64,000 nt of DNA from Bacteroidales bacterium (GTDB taxonomy: Bacteria > Bacteroidota > Bacteroidia > Bacteroidales > VadinHA17). The notes below the pieces were generated by a model. It did not search any database, was not told where the DNA came from, and saw only the letters and a list, made by a program, of their open reading frames with translations. Both the position numbers and the translations under genes were made by a program. The DNA lies in NCBI GenBank assembly GCA_024762655.1, contig JANTHB010000005.1:403-64402 (forward strand), written 5' to 3'. How positions within the stretch are numbered: the stretch's first letter is position 1; each line of letters opens with the position of its first letter. Shown in pieces: positions 16,258-56,443 of this stretch.

Positions 16258-19200
16258 ATGAAGCCGAATTCATTATTTGAAGTAAGTTGGGAAGTATGTA
16301 ATAAAGTAGGAGGGATATATACGGTCATTACCACGAAAGTGCCTTCGATGGTTAAAGAATTTGGGGAACAGTATTTTTTGATCGGGCCCGATATCATTAA
16401 GGAAAACGGAGACCGCGGAGAATTTATCGAAGACGATACATTATATCAGGCCTGGAGAGAACAGGCTACTGCTGAAGGACTGAACGTCCGCATGGGACGC
16501 TGGAATATCCCCGGCACCCCGGTGGTTCTTTTACTTGATTTCTATTCTTTTATAATGCAAAAGGATGAAATTTTTAAAAAATTATGGGAAGATTTCAAGC
16601 TGGATTCCCTCTCCGGACAATGGGATTACATTGAGCCGGCATTGTTCGGATATGCCGCCGGCAGGGTGATTGAAAGCTTTACCAATTTTAATCTGGGATT
16701 TCAGGAGAATGTCATTGCTCAGTTTCATGAGTGGATGACCGGGGCCGGGGTATTGTACCTGAAAAGCTCGGCGCCTCATATAGGTACAGCTTTTACGACC
16801 CATGCCACGGCATTGGGCCGGGCTATAGCAGGCAACAACAGAAAGCTGTATAAGAACCTGGAAAACTATAATCCTTATCAGGTAGCCCGTGAATTTGGAA
16901 TTGTTTCCAAACACTCTCTCGAGTCACTGTCCGGTCAGGAAGCGGATGTATTTACCACCGTCAGCTCTATTACCGCACGCGAGTGTGAATATTTCCTGGG
17001 GAAAAAGGTGGATCTGGTTACACCGAATGGTTTTGATAACGCCATTGTTCCGGACCGGCAACATTTCGGCTCAAAACGGAAGAATGCCCGGAAAGCCTTG
17101 CTGACGACAGCCGGCAGATTACATCACAGGACCTATGCGGAAGACACTTTTCTGGTGGCAATAAGCGGAAGGTATGAGTTTAAGAATAAAGGGATAGATG
17201 TCTTTATTAAATCTTTGTCCCGGCTGCGGGAGCTGAAAGGGAGCCGTGAGATGATCGCTTTTATTCTGATACCGGCAGATCATGCCGGCCCACGTCAGGA
17301 TCTGCTGGAGGCATTAAGGAATAACAAAGAATTTGAATCGTCCGATACAACTCTGACACACGAGCTTCGTAATAAAGATCATGATGCGATCATACAACTG
17401 TTGCGTCAAAAGGAACTTGACCGTGAGAAGGATGATTCCATACATGTGGTTTTTGTTCCTTCCTACCTGAACGGAGATGATGGGATCTTCAACATCCCCT
17501 ATTATGACCTTTTGATAGGCTTTGATCTTACGGCTTTCCCGTCTTATTACGAACCCTGGGGTTATACTCCGCTGGAGAGTTTGGCCTTTCATGTTCCTAC
17601 CGTGACAACAACCCTGGCGGGTTTCGGAGCCTGGGTAAAAGAGCACTTTGAAGTTGAGCACCACGGGACCCATATTATTGACAGGAATGATGATAATGAT
17701 GATGAAGTCATTCATGCCCTGGCAGAAGCCATGGCTTTATACCGGGAAATGAAGCAGGAAGAAATGGAAGAAACCCGTGAAGAAGCATGGCGGATATCCC
17801 AGATCGCCTTGTGGAAAAATCTGGTTTCTTACTACCAGGATGCCTATAACATTGCGATAGAGAAAGTGGGGGAACGTTTCAAATCGCTCGAACTTGTTTC
17901 TCAGACCACCCAGGCCCCTTTAATTATGCCCAGAACGCTGCTTACCGTACCTCAGTGGAAACCTTTCTTTATTGACTCCCGCCTACCGGCCCGGTTGGTC
18001 GTTCTGGAAGAGCTTGCTAAAAACCTTTGGTGGTCCTGGAATGAAGACGCCAGGAATATTTGGAAGTTCATGGATCCGGTAAAATGGGTGGAATGCGATT
18101 ACAATCCGTTGTTACTCCTGGAAACGCTGGATTATAAAAAGCTTCTGATTTTATCTCGCGACAAGGTGTTTTTAAGCCGTCTGGACAACGTGGTGGAAAA
18201 GTTCAGAAATTATATGCAGGAGAAGCCCGACGCTTCGCTGCCGCATATCGCTTATTTTAGTATGGAGTTCGGATTGCACAATGCCCTGAAAATATATTCC
18301 GGGGGGCTCGGGATACTGGCCGGAGATTATCTGAAGGAAGCCAGTGATGAAAACAAATCCATGACAGGCATCTCCTTATTATACCGGTTCGGTTATTTCA
18401 AACAGGTGTTGAGCATTAACGGAGAGCAGATGGAGTCTTATGAAGCCGAGCAATTTTCAAAACTTCCGGTAACCCCGGTGAAAGACGAGGAAGGAAACTG
18501 GAAAACGGTAGAGGTGGGTTTTCCGGGACGTACGGTGAAAGCCAGAATATGGGAAGCAAAAGTAGGCCGTGTTTCCCTGTATCTTCTGGATACCGATATG
18601 GAGGAGAATCAGGAGCGCGACCGTTCCATCACCCATCATCTGTATGGCGGAGACAGGGAAAACAGGTTGAAACAGGAATTGCTTTTAGGGGTAGGAGGTA
18701 TAAGGGCTCTTAAAACCTTAGGAATCCGGCCGGATTTATACCACAGCAATGAGGGCCATTCTGCCTTTATCGGTTTGGAAAGGATCAACCATCTTATCCA
18801 CGATCATCACCTCTCCTTCGCCGAAGCGCGCGAGGTAGTGCGTGCTTCCACCCTCTTTACCACCCATACCCCTGTACCGGCAGGACACGATCAGTTCGAA
18901 GAGAGTTTGTTGAGGACGTATCTGTCGCATTATCCCGACCGCCTGAAGATATCATGGGACGAAATGATGAACCTGGGAAGAAAACAGCCGGGGAACACCC
19001 ATGAAAAGTTCAATATGAGCTTTCTGGCTGCCAATCTTTCAGGGGAGATGAATGGCGTGAGTAAGCTGCACGGCGAAGTGAGCAAGGATATCTTTAAAGA
19101 TCTCTGGCCCGGTTTTCTGAAAGAAGAATTAAAGATCGGATATGTCACCAATGGCGTTCATTTTAAAACCTGGGCTTCAGGATACTGGGAAAACTTTCTG

Positions 19201-20481
19201 ATGGAGAAAACAGGAAGCGAAGAGGTGTTAACGCCCTGTTCCGACAAGTGGAAAAGAATAGAGGATATTGATGAAGCCGGGATTTGGGAGGTAAAGCAAC
19301 ACCTGAAAGGAGATATGATCCGTTTTATTCGCGAGAGGTTCACGCGCAATGGAACCCGGCGGCATGAATCTCCGAAAAAATTGATCGAGATTAATCAGAA
19401 ACTTAACGAAAAGGCTTTGACCATTGGCTTTGCCAGACGTTTTGCTTCCTACAAAAGAGGAACGCTGCTTTTCAAGGATATCGAAAGATTGAAAAAAATC
19501 GTGAACGACACGCAACGACCGGTTCAGTTTATTTTTGCAGGGAAAGCCCATCCTCAGGATACGGAAGGGAAAAATCTGATCAAAGAGATATTCAGGATCT
19601 CCCATCTCCCTGAATTTAAGGGGAGAGTTCTTTTTCTGGAAGATTATGATATGGAACTGGCGACAAAACTGGTGCAGGGGGTGGATATCTGGATGAATAC
19701 TCCCACGCGTCCCCTGGAAGCTTCCGGTACCAGCGGAGAAAAAGCCGTTATGAACGGGACCTTGCACTTCAGCGTGCTGGACGGTTGGTGGGTGGAGGGC
19801 TATGTGAAAGGGGCCGGATGGGCTCTGCCTCAGGAAAAAACATACGAGAATCAGGACTTCCAGGACGAACTGGATGCTGAAATGATCTACAACCTGCTGG
19901 AGACAGAGATCATACCGCTCTATTATAAACGCGACGCCAACGGTGTTCCCTCCAAATGGGTGAAAGCCATCAAGAAAAACCTGCTGGAAATAGCTCCGGG
20001 ATTTACCATGCAACGGATGATCAGGGATTACTATGACAGGTATTACCTGAAAATGTTTGAAAGAAGTAAAAAACTGCAGGAGAAAAGGTTTGAGAATGCC
20101 CGGCTGATTGCTCTCTGGAAGTACGAGGTATACAGTAACATAGAAAAAATTGATGTTGTTTCCGTTCAGTTTTCCGAAGATGGCAAACAGGAATACCGGG
20201 TAGGGGAAGAATATACCGGGACCGTAGTGTTGGACCTGAAGGAGATCCTGCCGCAATGGATCGATCTGGAACTGGTCATCACCGATCTGGACAGAAACGG
20301 GAATCTGGTTCTTGCGTTCAAACAGGCCTTCGATTTTGTTAAGCAGGAGGGGTCTAAAGCGTATTATTCCATCCGGATTACCCCTACGGTTCCGGGGTAT
20401 TTCTACTATAACCTGCGTATTGTGCCGAAACATGAACTGTTACCCCACCCCCAGGATTTTAACCTGGTGAGATGGATATAA
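16258..20481 (+). CDS. Bimodular GT3 glycogen synthase (N-terminal) fused to a GT35 alpha-glucan phosphorylase (C-terminal)
   Basis: The N-terminus LFEVSWEVCNKVGGIYTVI, HEWMTG and YYEPWGYTPLES are eukaryote-type GT3 motifs. From about aa 570 come WWSWNEDA (the N-terminal extension of alpha-glucan phosphorylases), YFSMEFG, GGLGILAGD, TNGVH and LEASGTSGEKAVMNG (PLP-lysine region). It is one uninterrupted 1407-codon frame. Confidence 0.85.
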   Translation: MKPNSLFEVSWEVCNKVGGIYTVITTKVPSMVKEFGEQYFLIGPDIIKENGDRGEFIEDDTLYQAWREQATAEGLNVRMGRWNIPGTPVVLLLDFYSFIMQKDEIFKKLWEDFKLDSLSGQWDYIEPALFGYAAGRVIESFTNFNLGFQENVIAQFHEWMTGAGVLYLKSSAPHIGTAFTTHATALGRAIAGNNRKLYKNLENYNPYQVAREFGIVSKHSLESLSGQEADVFTTVSSITARECEYFLGKKVDLVTPNGFDNAIVPDRQHFGSKRKNARKALLTTAGRLHHRTYAEDTFLVAISGRYEFKNKGIDVFIKSLSRLRELKGSREMIAFILIPADHAGPRQDLLEALRNNKEFESSDTTLTHELRNKDHDAIIQLLRQKELDREKDDSIHVVFVPSYLNGDDGIFNIPYYDLLIGFDLTAFPSYYEPWGYTPLESLAFHVPTVTTTLAGFGAWVKEHFEVEHHGTHIIDRNDDNDDEVIHALAEAMALYREMKQEEMEETREEAWRISQIALWKNLVSYYQDAYNIAIEKVGERFKSLELVSQTTQAPLIMPRTLLTVPQWKPFFIDSRLPARLVVLEELAKNLWWSWNEDARNIWKFMDPVKWVECDYNPLLLLETLDYKKLLILSRDKVFLSRLDNVVEKFRNYMQEKPDASLPHIAYFSMEFGLHNALKIYSGGLGILAGDYLKEASDENKSMTGISLLYRFGYFKQVLSINGEQMESYEAEQFSKLPVTPVKDEEGNWKTVEVGFPGRTVKARIWEAKVGRVSLYLLDTDMEENQERDRSITHHLYGGDRENRLKQELLLGVGGIRALKTLGIRPDLYHSNEGHSAFIGLERINHLIHDHHLSFAEAREVVRASTLFTTHTPVPAGHDQFEESLLRTYLSHYPDRLKISWDEMMNLGRKQPGNTHEKFNMSFLAANLSGEMNGVSKLHGEVSKDIFKDLWPGFLKEELKIGYVTNGVHFKTWASGYWENFLMEKTGSEEVLTPCSDKWKRIEDIDEAGIWEVKQHLKGDMIRFIRERFTRNGTRRHESPKKLIEINQKLNEKALTIGFARRFASYKRGTLLFKDIERLKKIVNDTQRPVQFIFAGKAHPQDTEGKNLIKEIFRISHLPEFKGRVLFLEDYDMELATKLVQGVDIWMNTPTRPLEASGTSGEKAVMNGTLHFSVLDGWWVEGYVKGAGWALPQEKTYENQDFQDELDAEMIYNLLETEIIPLYYKRDANGVPSKWVKAIKKNLLEIAPGFTMQRMIRDYYDRYYLKMFERSKKLQEKRFENARLIALWKYEVYSNIEKIDVVSVQFSEDGKQEYRVGEEYTGTVVLDLKEILPQWIDLELVITDLDRNGNLVLAFKQAFDFVKQEGSKAYYSIRITPTVPGYFYYNLRIVPKHELLPHPQDFNLVRWI

Positions 20482-20548
20482 TGTTCAAAGGCTAAAGTAA
20501 TCCACCTTCGCTGAAGCTTCGGTGGACAAGGAAGGCAGAAGGAATAAA

Positions 20549-20576
20549 ATGTAGAATGTAGAATGTAGAATGTAAA
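20549..20576. repeat. 7-bp tandem repeat (ATGTAGA) x3 plus one degenerate copy
   Basis: ATGTAGA at 20549, 20556 and 20563, then ATGTAAA at 20570. Confidence 0.9.
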
Positions 20577-20593
20577 ACCGTTATATTACAATT

Positions 20594-20670
20594 GCATGAC
20601 CATTGTATGACTATCGTATGACCACTTAATTTCGTTGCGAGCTTGCGAGCAGCTAATTTCTACTTAATTA
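20594..20670. repeat. Composite repeat unit, copy 1: three 11-bp (G)TATGACYAYY repeats followed by a CACTTAATTTCGTTGCGAGCTTGCGAGCAGCTAATT..TACTTAATTA module
   Basis: ATGAC at 20596, 20607 and 20618 (exact 11-bp spacing). The following module recurs at 20836-20907. Confidence 0.9.
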
Positions 20671-20672
20671 TC

Positions 20673-20739
20673 CCTTCCTCCCGGCCCCTCGATACAGCTC
20701 TCGCTTTGCTCCAGCCACTCGGGGACCGGGCACGGAAGG
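20673..20739. repeat. GC-rich imperfect hairpin between the two composite repeat units
   Basis: CCTTCC (20673-78) pairs with GGAAGG (20734-39). The inner stem is CCGGCCCC with GGGG(A)CCGG, and the loop is ~32 nt. Confidence 0.6.
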
Positions 20740-20774
20740 CCAGGTCGGCGCAAATGCCGTTCGCGTTAGCGAAT

Positions 20775-20907
20775 GAATGACTATTGTATGACTACCGTAT
20801 GACTACCATATGACTACCGTATGACCATTGTATGACCACTTAATTTCGCTGCGAGCTTGCGAGCAGCTAATTACCGCGAGCGAAGCGAGCAAATTACTAC
20901 TTAATTA
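20775..20907. repeat. Composite repeat unit, copy 2: six 11-bp TATGACYAYY repeats followed by the same tail module with a 22-bp GCGAGC-rich insertion
   Basis: ATGAC at 20777, 20788, 20799, 20810, 20821 and 20832 (exact 11-bp spacing). This is followed by CACTTAATTTCGCTGCGAGCTTGCGAGCAGCTAATT, then ACCGCGAGCGAAGCGAGCAAAT, then TACTACTTAATTA. Confidence 0.9.
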
Positions 20908-20926
20908 CGGTTGCCGGGAAAAAGGT

Positions 20927-22945
20927 TTACCGGACGGGCTTAGGCAGTTTCCGTTTAAAAACCAGTCCGGTGCGGGCCGGCAGGTACAGTTTTATAAAAA
21001 AGGGGTCGGAAGAGTACCATTTGCCATACTTTATCGCCGGATACAGCAGGGTCTCGTCAATCCTGCCCTGGCCTCCGTAGGCCGGCGCATCGGTGTTGAG
21101 GACAATACGGTAATTGCCGCTTCCTACCGGTATTCCGTAGTCGGTGAAGGAACGAACGGGATTGAAATTAAAGACGAATAATAAGTCCATCCTGGAGAAC
21201 GCCACAACCTGGTCGACTTCATTGGCCGAGATAAAGAAAGGGGAGAGTACATCATAGATATGTTCTTTTCTCAGGAGCATAATCATATCTCTGTCGAAAG
21301 CTCCCAGTTCGCAGTAATGAAGATGCTCATCGTACACCAGATGCCATTGGCGGCGGGCATATTTGTAAGACCAGTTGTTCCCTTCACGGGGGAAGTCAAT
21401 CCATTCGGGGTGGCCGAACTCATTGCCCATGAAATTCAGGTATCCCCCGCCGGCTGTGGCTGCCGTAATCAAACGAATCATTTTATGCAGGGCGATCCCC
21501 CGGTCGACCACAATATTCCGGTCTTCTTTGGACATGTGGAAATACATCTCTTTGTCCATCAGACGGAAGGCGATGGTCTTGTCTCCTACCAGCGCCTGGT
21601 CATGGGATTCGGCATATCCGATGGTTTTTTCATCTTCCCGGTGATTGCTTAGTTCATGATACATCTCATTTACATTCCATTGCTCATCCGGATATTCCTT
21701 GATCAGCTTGATCCAGTAATCCGGAACGCCCATCGCCAGCCGGTAATCAAATCCGAAACCTCCGTCCTGGTTGGAAACAGCCAGTCCCGGCATGCCACTC
21801 ATCTCTTCGGCAACGGTAAGGGATTGCGGATTGATACGGTGTATTAACTCGTTGGCAAGCGTAAGGTAAATAATGGCGTCTTCATCCTGTTCCCCGTTGT
21901 AGTAGTTATCGTAAGAGGTAAAATCCCTGCCCAGACCATGATCCGAATACAGCATGGAAGTGACACCGTCGAAACGGAATCCGTCGAAATGATATTCTTC
22001 CAGCCAATACCGGCAGTTGGAGAGCAGGAAGTGCAGCACTTCATGTTTCCCGTAATTAAAACAAAGAGAGTTCCAGGCGGGATGTTGGCCCCGGGGTCCA
22101 GGATGAAAGTACTGCTCACGGGTCCCGTCGAAGAGCGCCAGCCCTTCCACTTCATTGCGTACGGCATGGGAGTGAACAATGTCCATGATGACCCGTATGC
22201 CGTTCTCGTGGGCAGTGTCAATCAGCGATTTGAGCTCGTCCGGTGTGCCGAAACGGGAAGAAGCCGCAAAAAAACTGGATACATGATATCCGAAAGAGCC
22301 ATAATACGGGTGCTCCTGAATGGCCATGAGCTGAATGGTATTGTACCCGGCTTTGATAATATAGGGAAGGAGGTGATCCCTGAATTCGGCATAGGAAGCC
22401 ACCTTCTCTTCTTCACTGCTCATGCCGATATGCGCTTCATAGATAAAAGGAGCTTTCTCGGCAGGCCTGAAGTTTTTTACTTTGAAGAGATAAGGATCGG
22501 AAGGATCCCAGACCTGGGCATTGAAAAGTTTGGTGTTTTCATCCTGTACCACCCTGGTGGCATAAGAGGGGATTCGTTCTCCCTGACCCCCTTCCCAGTG
22601 AACGGAGAGGTGATACAGATCTCCATGATGAAGCTTATCCAAAGGAATGCGAAACTCCCACACCCCGTTTTTTTGAGCACGCAGAGAAAAATTTTCGGAC
22701 TCTTTCCACCCGGATGATTCGCACAGAAAATAAATCCTTGAAGCATTGGGTGCCCATTCCCTGAAAACCCAGTATTTTTTTTTCTTGTGCAGGCCAAAAT
22801 AATGATGCCCTTGTGCAAAGTCAACCAGACTTTTCGGACCGGTCAGTTCCTCTCTGACCAAATGGTATTTTTTTTGACGGCCCGCAATAACCTCAGCGTA
22901 GGGCTGTAACCAGGGATCCTTTTTCACATATTCGGGTAGGTTCAT
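20927..22945 (-). CDS. glgB: 1,4-alpha-glucan branching enzyme (GH13, eukaryote-like subfamily)
   Basis: 672 aa with the GH13 conserved regions DIVHSH, GFRFDGVTSM, AEEMSG and YAESHDQ, plus an N-terminal CBM48-like region. Confidence 0.85.
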   Translation of the reverse strand: MNLPEYVKKDPWLQPYAEVIAGRQKKYHLVREELTGPKSLVDFAQGHHYFGLHKKKKYWVFREWAPNASRIYFLCESSGWKESENFSLRAQKNGVWEFRIPLDKLHHGDLYHLSVHWEGGQGERIPSYATRVVQDENTKLFNAQVWDPSDPYLFKVKNFRPAEKAPFIYEAHIGMSSEEEKVASYAEFRDHLLPYIIKAGYNTIQLMAIQEHPYYGSFGYHVSSFFAASSRFGTPDELKSLIDTAHENGIRVIMDIVHSHAVRNEVEGLALFDGTREQYFHPGPRGQHPAWNSLCFNYGKHEVLHFLLSNCRYWLEEYHFDGFRFDGVTSMLYSDHGLGRDFTSYDNYYNGEQDEDAIIYLTLANELIHRINPQSLTVAEEMSGMPGLAVSNQDGGFGFDYRLAMGVPDYWIKLIKEYPDEQWNVNEMYHELSNHREDEKTIGYAESHDQALVGDKTIAFRLMDKEMYFHMSKEDRNIVVDRGIALHKMIRLITAATAGGGYLNFMGNEFGHPEWIDFPREGNNWSYKYARRQWHLVYDEHLHYCELGAFDRDMIMLLRKEHIYDVLSPFFISANEVDQVVAFSRMDLLFVFNFNPVRSFTDYGIPVGSGNYRIVLNTDAPAYGGQGRIDETLLYPAIKYGKWYSSDPFFIKLYLPARTGLVFKRKLPKPVR

Positions 22946-25603: not shown

Positions 25604-25652
25604 AAATAAATATTTAAATAAATAATTAAATATTTATTTAAATACATATATT
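25604..25652. repeat. AT-only palindrome between convergent genes; shares a 19-mer with the one at 45229-45263
   Basis: AAATAAATATTTAA (25604-17) pairs with TTAAATATTTATTT (25626-39). TTAAATATTTATTTAAATA (25626-44) is identical to 45241-45259. Confidence 0.7.
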
Positions 25653-37848: not shown

Positions 37849-39807
37849 ATGAAACGATTGAAAAAGATAATCCTTCTTCCCGGATTGTTCCTTCTGGTGA
37901 GCTGGCTGGCTCCAGCAAAAGAATATACCCTGCTTTCACCGGATCACCGGATCACTGTGAAAATTCAGGTGAACAACAGGGTAACCTTCGGGGTTTTCAG
38001 AAACGGGAAACAAGTGGTTTCTTCCCCCGGCATATCCATGACGGTGGACGGGGTGGTGATTCCGGTGGAACATGCCCGCGTGAAAAAAGTGTTGCATGCC
38101 CAAAGGGATGAGATCCTGCATCCGGCAGTGCCTGTGAAAAATGCGGCAATACGGAATCAATATAATGAGATCACCTTCAAATTCAGAGGGATTTACGATA
38201 TTATCTTCCGGGTATATAATGACGGGGTTGCCTACCGGTTTGCCATCCATCAACCCGGGTCGGTGGAGGTGGACGATGAGACAGCCCGCCTGGTCTTTCC
38301 CGAAGGAACATCTGCTTTTTATCCGCGCGAGGAGAGTTTTTTCTCACACAATGAACGCAGCTATATCCATTTGGATCTGAAGGATATCCAGTCCGGCGAT
38401 CTGGCCAGCCTGCCTGCCTTGTTCGAAGTGCCGGACGGGCCTGATGTCCTGCTGACAGAATCGGACCTGAACGATTACCCGGGTATGTGGATCATGGGTA
38501 CCGGGAAGAATGAGATCACGGCAACTTTTCCGAAATATCCGGAGAAAACCCAACAGACCTCTGACCGCAATGTGAAACCGGTGGAACGGGCTGATTATCT
38601 GGCTAAAACAATGGGTGAAAGGACTTTTCCCTGGAGGGTGATGATTATTGCGCCCGAAGCCAAAGATCTGCTTGAAAACGAAATGGTATATAAGCTGGCG
38701 GCCCCTCTGAAACTTAAAGATCCTTCCTGGATAAAGCCCGGCCTGGTGGCCTGGGACTGGTGGAACGCCCTGAATGTTTACGGGGTGGACTTCAAATCGG
38801 GGGTGAATACGGAAACCTATAAATATTTTATCGATTTTGCTTCGGCGAATGGCATTCCTTATATCATCTTGGATGAGGGCTGGTACAAACAGGGCAATCT
38901 TCTGGATATTAACCCGGATGTGAACATGGAAGAATTGGTGCGTTATGCCAAAGAAAAACAGGTGGGGATCATTCTGTGGGTGGTGTGGAAGACCCTGGAT
39001 GATCAGATGGAAAAGGCGCTGGATCAGTTTGAGAAATGGGGGATAAAAGGAATCAAGGTGGATTTTATGCAACGGGATGATCAGTGGATGGTGAACTTTT
39101 ATCGCAAAGTAGCGCGTGAAACGGCCAAACGTCATATGCTGGTGGATTTTCACGGGGCCTATAAACCCAGTGGCCTGCGGCGCGAATATCCCAATGTGAT
39201 CAGCCGTGAAGGGGTGAAAGGCATGGAATGGAACAAATGGAGCGAGGAAATCACCCCGGCACATAATGTGACGATCCCCTTTATCCGGATGACGGCAGGC
39301 CCCATGGATTATACCCCGGGTGCCATGGTGAATGCCCATAAAAAAAACTTCTTTGTCTCCTTTGACCGTCCCATGAGCATGACTACCCGGGTTCACCAAC
39401 TGGCTATGTATGTTGTGTATGAAAGCCCTTTGCAGATGCTGGCGGATAATCCTTCCAACTATCTGCGTGAACCGGTGTGCCTGGAGGTTCTGTCACACAT
39501 GCCTGTTACCTGGGATGAAACGCATGCCCTGGCAGGAGAAGTCGGTAAATTTGTCGTGGTGGCCCGCAGAAAAGGAGATACCTGGTATATCGGTGCGATG
39601 AACGGCGACGGCAACCGAACCGTGGAGCTCGATCTCTCTTTCCTGCCGCAAGGAACGTATCAGGCGGAGATATTCAGGGACGGAGTGAATGCAGACCGCT
39701 ATGCCCAGGATTATAAGAAAATAGTGACGACGATTCAAAGCGACCGGAAACTGGCGATTCATATGGCAGACGGTGGCGGTTGGGTAAGCATATTGAAAAA
39801 GAAGTAG
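37849..39807 (+). CDS. GH97 family glycoside hydrolase (alpha-glucosidase-like)
   Basis: A signal peptide, then ILDEGWY, KGIKVDFMQRDDQ, VDFHGAYKPSG, SREGVKGMEW and DYTPGAM, which are GH97 hallmarks. Confidence 0.85.
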   Translation: MKRLKKIILLPGLFLLVSWLAPAKEYTLLSPDHRITVKIQVNNRVTFGVFRNGKQVVSSPGISMTVDGVVIPVEHARVKKVLHAQRDEILHPAVPVKNAAIRNQYNEITFKFRGIYDIIFRVYNDGVAYRFAIHQPGSVEVDDETARLVFPEGTSAFYPREESFFSHNERSYIHLDLKDIQSGDLASLPALFEVPDGPDVLLTESDLNDYPGMWIMGTGKNEITATFPKYPEKTQQTSDRNVKPVERADYLAKTMGERTFPWRVMIIAPEAKDLLENEMVYKLAAPLKLKDPSWIKPGLVAWDWWNALNVYGVDFKSGVNTETYKYFIDFASANGIPYIILDEGWYKQGNLLDINPDVNMEELVRYAKEKQVGIILWVVWKTLDDQMEKALDQFEKWGIKGIKVDFMQRDDQWMVNFYRKVARETAKRHMLVDFHGAYKPSGLRREYPNVISREGVKGMEWNKWSEEITPAHNVTIPFIRMTAGPMDYTPGAMVNAHKKNFFVSFDRPMSMTTRVHQLAMYVVYESPLQMLADNPSNYLREPVCLEVLSHMPVTWDETHALAGEVGKFVVVARRKGDTWYIGAMNGDGNRTVELDLSFLPQGTYQAEIFRDGVNADRYAQDYKKIVTTIQSDRKLAIHMADGGGWVSILKKK

Positions 39808-39812
39808 AATAA

Positions 39813-40080
39813 CTAAAGTTTTGCACTGGATTAAAAAAATTATTTGTCTGGAATATATTATGTTAGTAGAATATAATACTTTGCGGTTCTTTGCGACATC
39901 TTTGCGAATCTTGGCGGAATAGCTGTTACGCGAAGTTACGCAGAGAAAACGCAAAGTTGCGCCAAGTTGCTGTTAATAAAAAAAGGAATCTGCAAAACAT
40001 AGATAATCAATAAAATATAAAGTTGACAAGTTGTTTAGTAAAGTCATTATTAATCAAAAAGCAGAATGTGCGAAACTTTA
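39813..40080 (+). mobile_element. 268-bp MITE-like element, copy A
   Basis: It aligns full-length (by eye ~85 percent in the flanks and 70/70 in the core at 39900-39969) with the reverse complement of 55761-56028. The 13-bp terminal inverted repeats TAAAGTTTTGCAC and GTGCGAAACTTTA match at 12/13. It starts 6 nt after the GH97 stop. Confidence 0.75.
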
Positions 40081-40099
40081 ATAAAATAAAATTTCAGGT

Positions 40100-45185: not shown

Positions 45186-45228
45186 AAGAGCGTATGTGTT
45201 TTGCGTGTGAGATTTTTTAAATATGTAT

Positions 45229-45263
45229 TTAAATAAGCATTTAAATATTTATTTAAATAAATA
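45229..45263. repeat. AT-only palindrome in the trpB-trpA spacer
   Basis: Perfect 18-bp palindrome TATTTATTTAAATAAATA (45246-63). The 19-mer at 45241-59 is identical to 25626-44, and ATATGTATTTAAATAA (45231-46) matches 25636-51 in inverse orientation. Confidence 0.7.
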
Positions 45264-45280
45264 TATCTGTTCAACGGTCG

Positions 45281-54634: not shown

Positions 54635-54647
54635 TGTATTGTTTTTG

Positions 54648-54729
54648 TGCGGATGAAGGGACTCGAACCCCCACGCCCGAAGGCACCAGATCCTAAGTCT
54701 GACGCGTCTACCAATTCCGCCACATCCGC
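54648..54729 (-). tRNA. tRNA-Leu (anticodon UAG)
   Basis: The minus strand reads GCGGATGTGGCGGAATTGGTAGACGCGTCAGACTTAGGATCTGGTGCCTTCGGGCGTGGGGGTTCGAGTCCCTTCATCCGCA. It has a 7-bp acceptor stem, anticodon loop CTTAGGA, a long variable arm and a GGTTCGAGTCC T-loop. CCA is not encoded. Confidence 0.9.
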
Positions 54730-54862: not shown

Positions 54863-55756
54863 ATGAAAAGAGGAAAATGTTTTTTTATTCTGGCCGGTCT
54901 GATTGTTTTATATACAACAGGTTGTCAGAACCCGGCGGCCAAAAAGGAAAGGGAAGCGGGGAAAAAGGTGTATATCAACGGCGACAAACTTGAAAAAATA
55001 TGGGTAACGCAACCTGCATTGCTTACCCCCGAGAGCGTATTGTACGATGCGCAGCGTAACATGATCTATGTTTCCAATATCAACGGAAAGCCTTCTGAAA
55101 AAGACGGGAACGGTTTTATCTCTTTGATAAATTCCGAAGGGAAGGTGGTTGAGAAGAAGTGGGTGGCCGGTCTGGATGCTCCCAAGGGGCTTGGCATCCG
55201 GGGGGATACGTTGTATGTGTCGGATATACAGTCGTTGGTTGAGATCAGTATTCCGGAGCGAAAAATCCTGAATCGTTATACGGATTCACTCGCTGTCTTC
55301 CTGAATGATGTAGCCGTAGATCCTGCAGGAAACGTTTATGTATCGGATATGGGCGGATCGGCTGTTTATCGCCTGCATAACGGGGTTTTTGAAAAATGGG
55401 TCCGGGACAAGCGATTAAAAGGGCCGAACGGCTTATATATTGAAGGCGGCCGGTTGCTGGCAGGATTGAAGGACCGGATTGTGAGCATCGACCTGCAAAG
55501 CGGGAAAATAAGTGATTACATCCTCCATACCGGGAGCATTGACGGATTGGAAAGCGACGGTCACGGAATTTATGTGATCAGCGACTGGGCAGGACATGTT
55601 TACCTGGCTGCTCCGGGAAAAAAGAAGATCCTTTTACTGGATACCACACCCATCAGGATGCAGGCGGCCGATATTGATTTCGTCAAGACGTCCGGTATGC
55701 TCCTGGTGCCCACTTTTGGGAACAACCGTGTGGTAGCTTACAGATATAAATATTAA
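54863..55756 (+). CDS. Lipoprotein, beta-propeller (SMP-30/gluconolactonase/LRE-like) candidate
   Basis: Lipobox (LYTTGCQN). Repeated ..G..YVSD.. / GPNGLYIEGGRLL blades. The family assignment is tentative. Confidence 0.45.
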   Translation: MKRGKCFFILAGLIVLYTTGCQNPAAKKEREAGKKVYINGDKLEKIWVTQPALLTPESVLYDAQRNMIYVSNINGKPSEKDGNGFISLINSEGKVVEKKWVAGLDAPKGLGIRGDTLYVSDIQSLVEISIPERKILNRYTDSLAVFLNDVAVDPAGNVYVSDMGGSAVYRLHNGVFEKWVRDKRLKGPNGLYIEGGRLLAGLKDRIVSIDLQSGKISDYILHTGSIDGLESDGHGIYVISDWAGHVYLAAPGKKKILLLDTTPIRMQAADIDFVKTSGMLLVPTFGNNRVVAYRYKY

Positions 55757-55760
55757 TGAT
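55753..55760. repeat. Target-site duplication TTAATGAT, left copy (contains the stop codon of the upstream gene)
   Basis: Identical to 56029-56036 on the other side of MITE copy B. Confidence 0.75.
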
Positions 55761-56028
55761 TAAAGTTTCGCACATTCTGCTATTTGATTAAGAGTGATTT
55801 TATCAAACAAAGTGCCAATTTAATATTTCATTGATTATCTTTGTTTTGCAGATTCCTTTTGTTATTAACACCAACTTGGCGCAACTTTGCGTTTTCTCTG
55901 CGTAACTTCGCGTAACAGCTATTCCGCCAAGATTCGCAAAGAAGTCGCGAAGAACCGCAAAGCTTTATATTGTACTAACATAATATATTCCAAACAAATA
56001 AATTTTTTAATCCAGTACGAAGCTTTAG
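55761..56028 (-). mobile_element. 268-bp MITE-like element, copy B (inverted relative to copy A)
   Basis: The reverse complement aligns end-to-end with 39813-40080, with an identical 70-nt core at 55872-55941. The ends are TAAAGTTTCGCAC and GTACGAAGCTTTAG, and the element is flanked by a perfect 8-bp direct repeat. Confidence 0.8.
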
Positions 56029-56036
56029 TTAATGAT
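56029..56036. repeat. Target-site duplication TTAATGAT, right copy
   Basis: Identical to 55753-55760. Confidence 0.75.
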
Positions 56037-56059
56037 CGTTTTTGTCTTAAGGACAGGGA

Positions 56060-56443
56060 TTATTTTATGAAGGGGAGTGTCAGAGGATACGTCCACAGCT
56101 CTCCATTAGCGGCCTTAATGGCTCCGATAACGGGAAAGATTATCATCAGCAAACCCAGGGCAATCAGCAGGGGTATGCCAATAAGAACCAACGTAAACAG
56201 ACCCGCTATCATTCCATAGATCAGGGCGCTGATCAGCCAATTGATGATCATTTTTCCGTGCCGGTCCACCTCCGGAAATTTTTCATTGTTTGTCAGCCAC
56301 ATGATCAAAGGCATCACCAGCCCTGCAAAGGGAACAATGACTCCGGCAAATTGGCTTAGGTGCATTAGCATAAGATAATTGTTCATTTCCATGCCCCAGG
56401 GTTTTTCCGCGGGGTTTGTGGGTGTGTCGTCAAGTATTTCCAT
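56060..56443 (-). CDS. DUF4870-like small membrane protein
   Basis: 127 aa, three or four TM helices, with the pattern HLSQFAG...P..G...PLI.W......F...HGK...N. typical of this family as I recall it. Confidence 0.55.
   Translation of the reverse strand: MEILDDTPTNPAEKPWGMEMNNYLMLMHLSQFAGVIVPFAGLVMPLIMWLTNNEKFPEVDRHGKMIINWLISALIYGMIAGLFTLVLIGIPLLIALGLLMIIFPVIGAIKAANGELWTYPLTLPFIK

Follow-up and report, generated by a model that had tools for sequence, protein, structure and literature searches.

The 64,000-nt stretch of DNA analysed here, hereafter the window, comes from a Bacteroidales bacterium (assembly GCA_024762655.1, contig JANTHB010000005.1, positions 403 to 64,402) and contains a 268-bp sequence twice, in opposite orientation, in two intergenic gaps. 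The question raised by these two copies is whether they were inserted into their present positions as a mobile element and, if so, of which kind. [quoted passage not shown] With a probability of roughly 0.8, an uncultured Bacteroidales lineage harbours here a non-autonomous DNA transposon (MITE) whose family has not been described before. The features on which this reading is based are a length of 268 bp without a transposase gene, inverted repeats at the ends, flanking duplications of 8–9 bp and single-target empty sites in relatives.

Copies, ends and insertion sites of the element

Copy B is located on the forward strand at positions 55761–56028, between the convergent genes 54863–55756(+), a 297-aa beta-propeller-like gene, and 56060–56443(-, DUF4870). 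Copy A is located on the reverse strand at positions 39813–40080, 15.7 kb away and in the opposite orientation, between the stop codon of a GH97 gene (39807) and the start codon of an alpha/beta-hydrolase gene (40100). The GH97 and hydrolase genes lie on the same strand and are probably co-transcribed. The repeat finder recovered the arms 39795–40082 and 55759–56046 as the sole long inverted pair of the window (89% complementarity). In the alignment and in BLASTN the shared block 55759–56031 was the reverse complement of 39810–40082 over 273 nt, with 90.8% identity and no indels, which agrees with the earlier description of a gap-free 268-bp pair of equal length. The element is AT-rich (32–34% G+C), and a sensitive BLASTN search with both copies as queries found no other copies in the window.

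The ends of the element form 13-bp terminal inverted repeats. In copy B the left repeat (55761–55773, + strand) reads TAAAGTTTCGCAC and the right one (56015–56027, + strand) GTACGAAGCTTTA, the latter being two positions off the consensus GTGCGAAACTTTA. In copy A, read on the - strand, the left repeat (40068–40080) is likewise TAAAGTTTCGCAC and the right one (39814–39826) is GTGCAAAACTTTA. Both copies carry an extra G after the right repeat, ending GTACGAAGCTTTA-G in copy B and GTGCAAAACTTTA-G in copy A. Watson-Crick complementarity of the ends is 11/13 in copy B and 12/13 in copy A, the same counts as initially annotated, and 12/13 in the third copy (contig L003, described below). The consensus of the three copies is a perfect inverted repeat, TAAAGTTTCGCAC...GTGCGAAACTTTA, complementary at all 13 positions. 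Chance rates for terminal complementarity and for flank matches were measured on the window itself, where a complementarity of at least 11/13 occurs at 1.5e-5 of the positions. Each of the three copies has one or two private changes in the inverted repeat with no compensating change at the opposite end, a pattern that indicates decay after insertion and not selection for pairing.

The sequences flanking the copies indicate target-site duplications. Copy B is bracketed by the octamer TTAATGAT at 55753–55760 and again at 56029–56036, as noted previously, and the left octamer includes the TAA stop codon (55754–55756) of the upstream gene, also as noted. An exact 8/8 match at the spacing of copy B is expected by chance at 4e-5 of the positions, or at 6e-4 if both 8-mers are AT-rich. 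Copy A had been regarded as lacking a clean duplication, and in this respect the earlier view has to be revised: a degenerate 9-bp duplication is present there and is backed by the empty site in relatives. On the GH97 side the decayed duplication GTAGAATAA (39804–39812) includes the TAG stop codon, and on the hydrolase side ATAAAATAA (40081–40089) is the same as the single copy present in the empty contigs L017 and L027. The two 9-mers match at seven of nine positions, the differences being two silent A-to-G changes (AAA to AAG and TAA to TAG). A 7/9 match is weak when taken alone (chance rate 2e-3 generally and 3e-2 for AT-rich 9-mers), but it becomes convincing because the excess of the window over the empty site is exactly 9 nt.

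This excess was obtained by comparing the window with its nearest relatives, which are uncultured Bacteroidales/Bacteroidetes metagenome-assembled genomes (MAGs) with 79–86% protein identity. At the site of copy A, hereafter site A, the gap between the GH97 and hydrolase genes is 292 nt in the window, against 13 nt in L017, 15 nt in L027 and 33 nt in L021, and the site is empty in three relative lineages, represented by L017–L020 (86% identity), L027 (81%) and L021–L023 (79%). Once the 268-bp element is taken out, the window still exceeds L017 by exactly 9 nt at the insertion point, and the sequences become collinear (GAAAAAGAAATAAAATAAAATT...) when these 9 nt are removed as well. The duplication at the second copy, which the flanking 9-mers had indicated, is thus corroborated by the length of the orthologous sequence.

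At the site of copy B, hereafter site B, six contigs with an 80%-identical orthologue (L009–L014) have kept the gene order trigger factor/296-aa gene/DUF4870/ABC/TatC/RecQ. In these relatives (L009) the convergent genes are separated by 23 nt, compared with 303 nt in the window. The empty site of L009 reads ...GGTATAAATGATCTTCTG...; the place taken in the window by TTAATGAT-element-TTAATGAT is filled there by a single TAAATGAT, and not by two TTAATGAT copies in tandem. After removal of the element and one 8-mer, site B aligns with L009 apart from a 6-nt indel, separate from the insertion, where the coding region ends. Site B is empty also in L015, a 78% relative. In that contig an (AAGGCT)n microsatellite (L015 1030–1056) follows right after the stop codon, at the position that copy B occupies in the window. 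No copies of the element were found in approximately 100 kb of syntenic DNA of the relatives. The empty sites and the length excess together identify both copies as insertions with duplications, of 9 bp in copy A and 8 bp in copy B.

A scan of 185,579 species genomes with an exact 21-mer from the central part of the element, the core, identified one true copy, together with two hairpin relatives that are treated below. The copy (L003 4040–4308) belongs to the Bacteroidales MAG bin1005 (JANTGF010000109.1), is of full length, and is 91% identical to copy B and 88% to copy A. Its neighbours, a NAD-dependent epimerase-like open reading frame (ORF) and DUF4440, are unrelated to the genes of the window; the element thus occurs at more loci than the two first described. 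The left flank of this copy, TTAATTAT, agrees with copy B's target at 7/8 positions, and the L003 sequence stops with the final base of the element. A search for DUF4440 homologues that could supply the right flank led to L024 and L025 as the closest contigs, both of which break off within a 22-nt tandem repeat and do not reach the site. In metagenomes, a scan with a degenerate 21-mer produced hairpin relatives and, apart from these, a single match that is probably due to chance. Exact-pattern scans of IMG/VR with the core, the end, the right arm and the shared 18-mer gave 0 matches each, and BLASTN found no match for the element among PLSDB plasmids and GenBank phages.

The surroundings of the third copy have some peculiarities of their own. 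Comparison of L003 3787–4039 with L026 2800–3000 showed that a LytTR response-regulator gene beside the copy is cut to its last ~11 codons, and ~75 nt of unrelated sequence separate this remnant from the element. Either a deletion or rearrangement beside the insertion or a chimeric assembly could account for the truncation. Upstream of the DUF4440 gene there are tandem 21–22-nt units AATAGGAAATAACCCCCTGCG in two to three copies (L003 3880–3935, L024 and L025 1–50, L026 2868–2915). The unit's copy number differs from relative to relative, and it is here that two ENA contigs break.

Direct observation covers the ends and duplications of the element, its empty sites in relatives and a third copy at an unrelated locus, and a mechanism may be deduced from these. 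A DDE-type transposase encoded elsewhere would bind both 13-bp ends and act in trans, excising or copying the element, which would then be inserted into AT-rich intergenic DNA by an 8–9-bp staggered cut. Repair of the staggered cut would leave the flanking duplication. The target sequences TTAATGAT, TTATTTTAT and probably TTAATTAT suggest a preference for TTA(A/T)T..AT. Duplications of 8–9 bp have been reported for IS256, IS1, IS66, IS1595 and parts of IS4, and to our knowledge the end sequence of the element is not that of any named family.

Several observations weigh against identification as a MITE. The duplications are of unequal length, 8 bp at site B and 9 bp at site A, and the comparison of site B with L009 needs the additional 6-nt indel. 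Only three copies are known in all, two in the 64-kb window and one in L003, the latter being the single true copy among the 185,579 species genomes scanned with the exact core 21-mer, and a loop-specific 20-mer of the core had 0 matches in the JGI metagenomes. A Pfam scan found no transposase among the 10 ORFs around both copies, nor was a transposase with matching ends found in a scan of the end pattern that covered viral contigs only (0 matches). Finally, the centre of the element is better conserved than its ends, which is the reverse of a textbook MITE.

The window as a whole is a housekeeping chromosomal stretch, including GH97, alpha/beta hydrolase with DUF3887, thyA, folA, trpA/B and clpX/P, and further the trigger factor gene (tig), tRNA-Leu, DUF4870, ABC ATPase, tatC and recQ. 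The tRNA-Leu gene (anticodon TAG; 54647–54729, - strand) is flanked by the genes for trigger factor and the 297-aa protein and has no association with the element. Proteins identical to those of the window (100% identity) were present in only two places, one NCBI MAG contig and the SRR19843167 Logan assembly. The NCBI contig runs through both copies, unlike the short-read contigs of the Logan assembly, which end 30 nt into a block identical between copies A and B (L004 at window position 55901 and L005 at 39913). Such breaks are expected from two copies alone at k = 31, and thus they are no evidence for additional copies.

The central hairpin

The core of the element is a 91-nt imperfect hairpin, located at 55872–55962 in copy B and at 39879–39969 in copy A. 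It is richer in G+C than the arms (49% against 21–28%), and its sequence is the same in copy B and L003, with two differences in copy A. Over the three copies, two of the 91 columns of the core were variable, compared to 39 of the 178 columns in the arms and ends (Fisher p = 4e-6). The hairpin is long and includes GCG/GC motifs spaced 10–11 nt apart. Folding of the core of copy B gave -29.3 kcal/mol on the + strand (z -2.6) and -38.9 kcal/mol on the - strand (z -3.2), the hairpin of the - strand being the stronger because of G.U pairs. In all three copies the strand on which the core folds more stably is also the one that is sense for the co-directional genes beside it, although three cases could be chance.

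Sequences resembling the core occur also in other Bacteroidota. A Flavobacteriaceae MAG contains a tandem array of three 90-nt units (L002 3725–3990, the same as L008 6570–6835) that share an 18–21-nt word and the layout of the stem with the core, and a Saprospiraceae MAG has a single unit of this kind (L001 1917–1963). A metagenome hairpin (L007 11085–11185) has the same word, there on the opposite arm of the hairpin. The word common to the core of the element, L001, L002/L008 and L007 is TGCGTAACTTCGCGTAAC, and outside the search seed the core is ~70–78% identical to these relatives. No compensatory pairs were seen in the core and the hairpin relatives, a comparison of five sequences only. 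The hairpin units of L001, L002/L008 and L007 possibly represent an undescribed extragenic repeat class of Bacteroidota.

All six frames of the element are broken or without ATG, and the copies differ non-synonymously in the longest frame. When this longest frame was searched against 1.84 billion representative proteins, only chance matches to low-complexity satellite-like sequences were obtained. The earlier statement that the element has no coding capacity was therefore upheld. A search of Rfam 15 at gathering and permissive thresholds assigned the element to no family, and near it there were only sub-threshold chance matches (E >= 0.5), the sole Rfam match in the window being the tRNA. Scans for sigma-70 and Bacteroidetes -7/-33 motifs found no promoter conserved across the copies. 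A single TAnnTTTG motif was present, and this in copy B only.

Decay of the arms and ends, set against a nearly invariant core, suggests on the comparison of the three copies that the hairpin is under a constraint of its own. Mobilisation may depend on this hairpin, or the host may maintain it, for instance as a stem-loop at RNA 3' ends or between cistrons or as an array for protein binding with 10–11-nt phasing. The hairpin carried by the element seems to be a module that is found more widely. A more far-reaching proposal is that the core is a functional module of undescribed, phylum-wide extragenic hairpin repeats of Bacteroidota, captured and spread by the MITE, so that its invariance would come from selection on structure or protein binding and not from transposition. 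Structure would here mean that of a strand-specific RNA or of single-stranded DNA, and binding that of a protein-binding array. This proposal is tentative and considered rather doubtful.

Alternative explanations

One alternative, which is very unlikely, is that the mobile unit is the central hairpin itself, either REP/BIME-like or a palindrome-associated unit of the IS200/IS605 type moved by an HUH (tyrosine) transposase, the terminal repeats and flank matches then being incidental. It would account for the core being the best conserved part of the element, for its long imperfect hairpin, which is stronger on one strand through G.U/G.T pairs, and for the presence of similar hairpins alone or in tandem in other Bacteroidota. 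Also the T(G/T)AT directly to the left of all three copies would admit a reading as target tetranucleotide, but this shared sequence is explained by the similarity of the AT-rich targets. It is, however, the whole 268-bp unit and not the hairpin alone that is common to the copies and missing from the empty sites. Furthermore, HUH elements make neither inverted terminal repeats nor duplications and the present element has both, and a tandem TTAATGAT would have had to exist at site B before the insertion, where the relative has one copy.

It is very improbable that the sequence is a host RNA element, that is, a small RNA gene or a 3'-end or intercistronic stem-loop acting as a terminator or mRNA stabiliser, that was duplicated for its function and whose mobility is secondary or absent. 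The folding z-scores of -2.6 to -3.8 are in line with such an element, as are the apparent constraint on the core and the finding that, in three of three copies, its more stable strand has the same sense as the co-directional genes alongside. The + strand hairpin of copy B is moreover followed by CUUUAUAUU and is situated downstream of a gene. An RNA function is, on the other side, supported neither by an Rfam match nor by a conserved promoter nor by compensatory base changes, and the relatives lack the element at both sites. Such a function would also leave the terminal repeats and the duplications unexplained.

A different kind of MITE, of the TA-duplicating IS630/mariner type or Correia-like, would have the ends AAGTTTCGCAC...GTGCGAAACTT flanked by TA, and the match of the two TTAATGAT copies would then be due to chance. 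Copies A and B can indeed both be read as TA-[AAG...CTT]-TA. The excess beyond the 268-bp unit over the empty sites is, however, 9 nt in copy A and at least 8 nt in copy B and not 2 nt, the left flank of L003 is TG and not TA, and the G that follows CTTTA in the copies would be unexplained. As the exact 8/8 match also has a chance rate of no more than 6e-4, this explanation is given hardly any credence, and a duplication of TA only was rejected on the length accounting at the empty sites, which gives 8–9 nt. Lastly, the inverted arrangement of copies A and B at a distance of 15.7 kb would fit a composite transposon with the copies at its ends, or else an origin by segmental duplication or by inversion, but each copy has its own duplication and these ideas are refuted because the housekeeping genes between and around the copies (thyA, folA, trpAB, clpXP and tig) have the same order and orientation in relatives lacking both copies.

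Relation to known repeats and significance

As a MITE, the element resembles bacterial MITEs of type I, which are derived from insertion sequences (IS), in its length of 268 bp (within 50–800 bp), AT-richness, intergenic location and lack of a transposase gene, and also in the inverted repeats at its ends (10 bp or more) and a duplication within 2–10 bp. It is unlike typical bacterial MITEs in that its centre is far better conserved than its ends. In being small, with inverted ends and a long hairpin if transcribed, and in its location adjacent to genes, the element resembles Correia/NEMIS of Neisseria and ERIC/IRU. Beside genes, these repeats can affect mRNA processing or termination. Correia/NEMIS and ERIC/IRU differ from the present element, with its 8–9-bp duplication, in their TA duplication, 26-bp ends and hundreds of copies.

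Within Bacteroidales, a similar arrangement is that of BrickBuilt, MITE239 and MITE464/PgRS of Porphyromonas gingivalis, which are likewise intergenic and have an internal repeat module within unrelated leader and tail arms (PMC4596501). BrickBuilt has been described as having a 'trapped' 23-nt repeat (PMC4596501), which parallels the hairpin module of the present element. The internal module of the P. gingivalis elements is nevertheless a tandem minisatellite instead of a single long hairpin, and their ends are IS5-like (GAGACCTTTGCA) whereas those of the present element are TAAAGTTTCGCAC (PMC4596501). Their duplications are short and irregular, and they are present in 10–20 copies per genome, compared to two copies in 64 kb here (PMC4596501).

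The core can be compared to the REP/BIME + RAYT system (PMC3733652), as it forms an imperfect palindrome, extragenic and asymmetric between the strands, and related units are arranged in tandem in the Flavobacteriaceae MAG. REPs differ, however, in being 20–40 bp long, with GTAG/CGTC tags, no terminal repeats or duplications and a high copy number, none of which applies to the present element (PMC3733652). REP/BIME (20–40 bp, GTAG/CGTC tag) was accordingly rejected as a classification, the unit being 268 bp with terminal repeats and duplications and its 91-nt core being untagged. An IS200/IS605-derived element, which would have neither terminal repeats nor a duplication and would be inserted 3' of a fixed target of 4–5 nt, is contradicted by the terminal repeats and the 8–9-bp duplications.

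The window includes also other repeats. Between the convergent ORFs 16258–20481(+) and 20927–22945(-), positions 20480–20930 consist of short-word tandem repeats, a separate and unrelated repeat type in which AATGTAG is present four times, GTATGACYAYYG units many times and TTGCGAGC twice. Two direct copies of 98 nt are found at 20561–20658 and 20775–20872 (77% identity). Furthermore, an AT-only sequence of 44 nt, TTTAAATA...ATTTAAATATTTATTTAAATA, occurs at 25606–25649 and, inverted, at 45221–45264 with 89% complementarity, one copy being between convergent genes and the other between trpA- and trpB-like ORFs. This pair could be a small repeat family or a product of low-complexity chance.

MITEs are abundant in Bacteroidota, as shown by the 81,380 unique MITEs catalogued through automated screening of 46,051 genomes (Bacteroidota; bioRxiv 10.1101/2024.01.18.576219), and because of this the present element is an ordinary kind of find, one more family in a very large catalogue. 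The sole feature beyond an ordinary MITE is the hairpin core. For the lineage in question, the element accounts for two enlarged intergenic gaps and for assembly breaks. The insertions are recent and set the source MAG apart from its relatives at 80–86% protein identity. At site A, a strong hairpin was placed between genes that are 13–15 nt apart in the two closest relatives and 33 nt apart in the third. The invariant centre and decaying ends of the element, together with the likeness of its core to hairpins in other orders of Bacteroidota, hint at an uncharacterised REP-like repeat class in the phylum.

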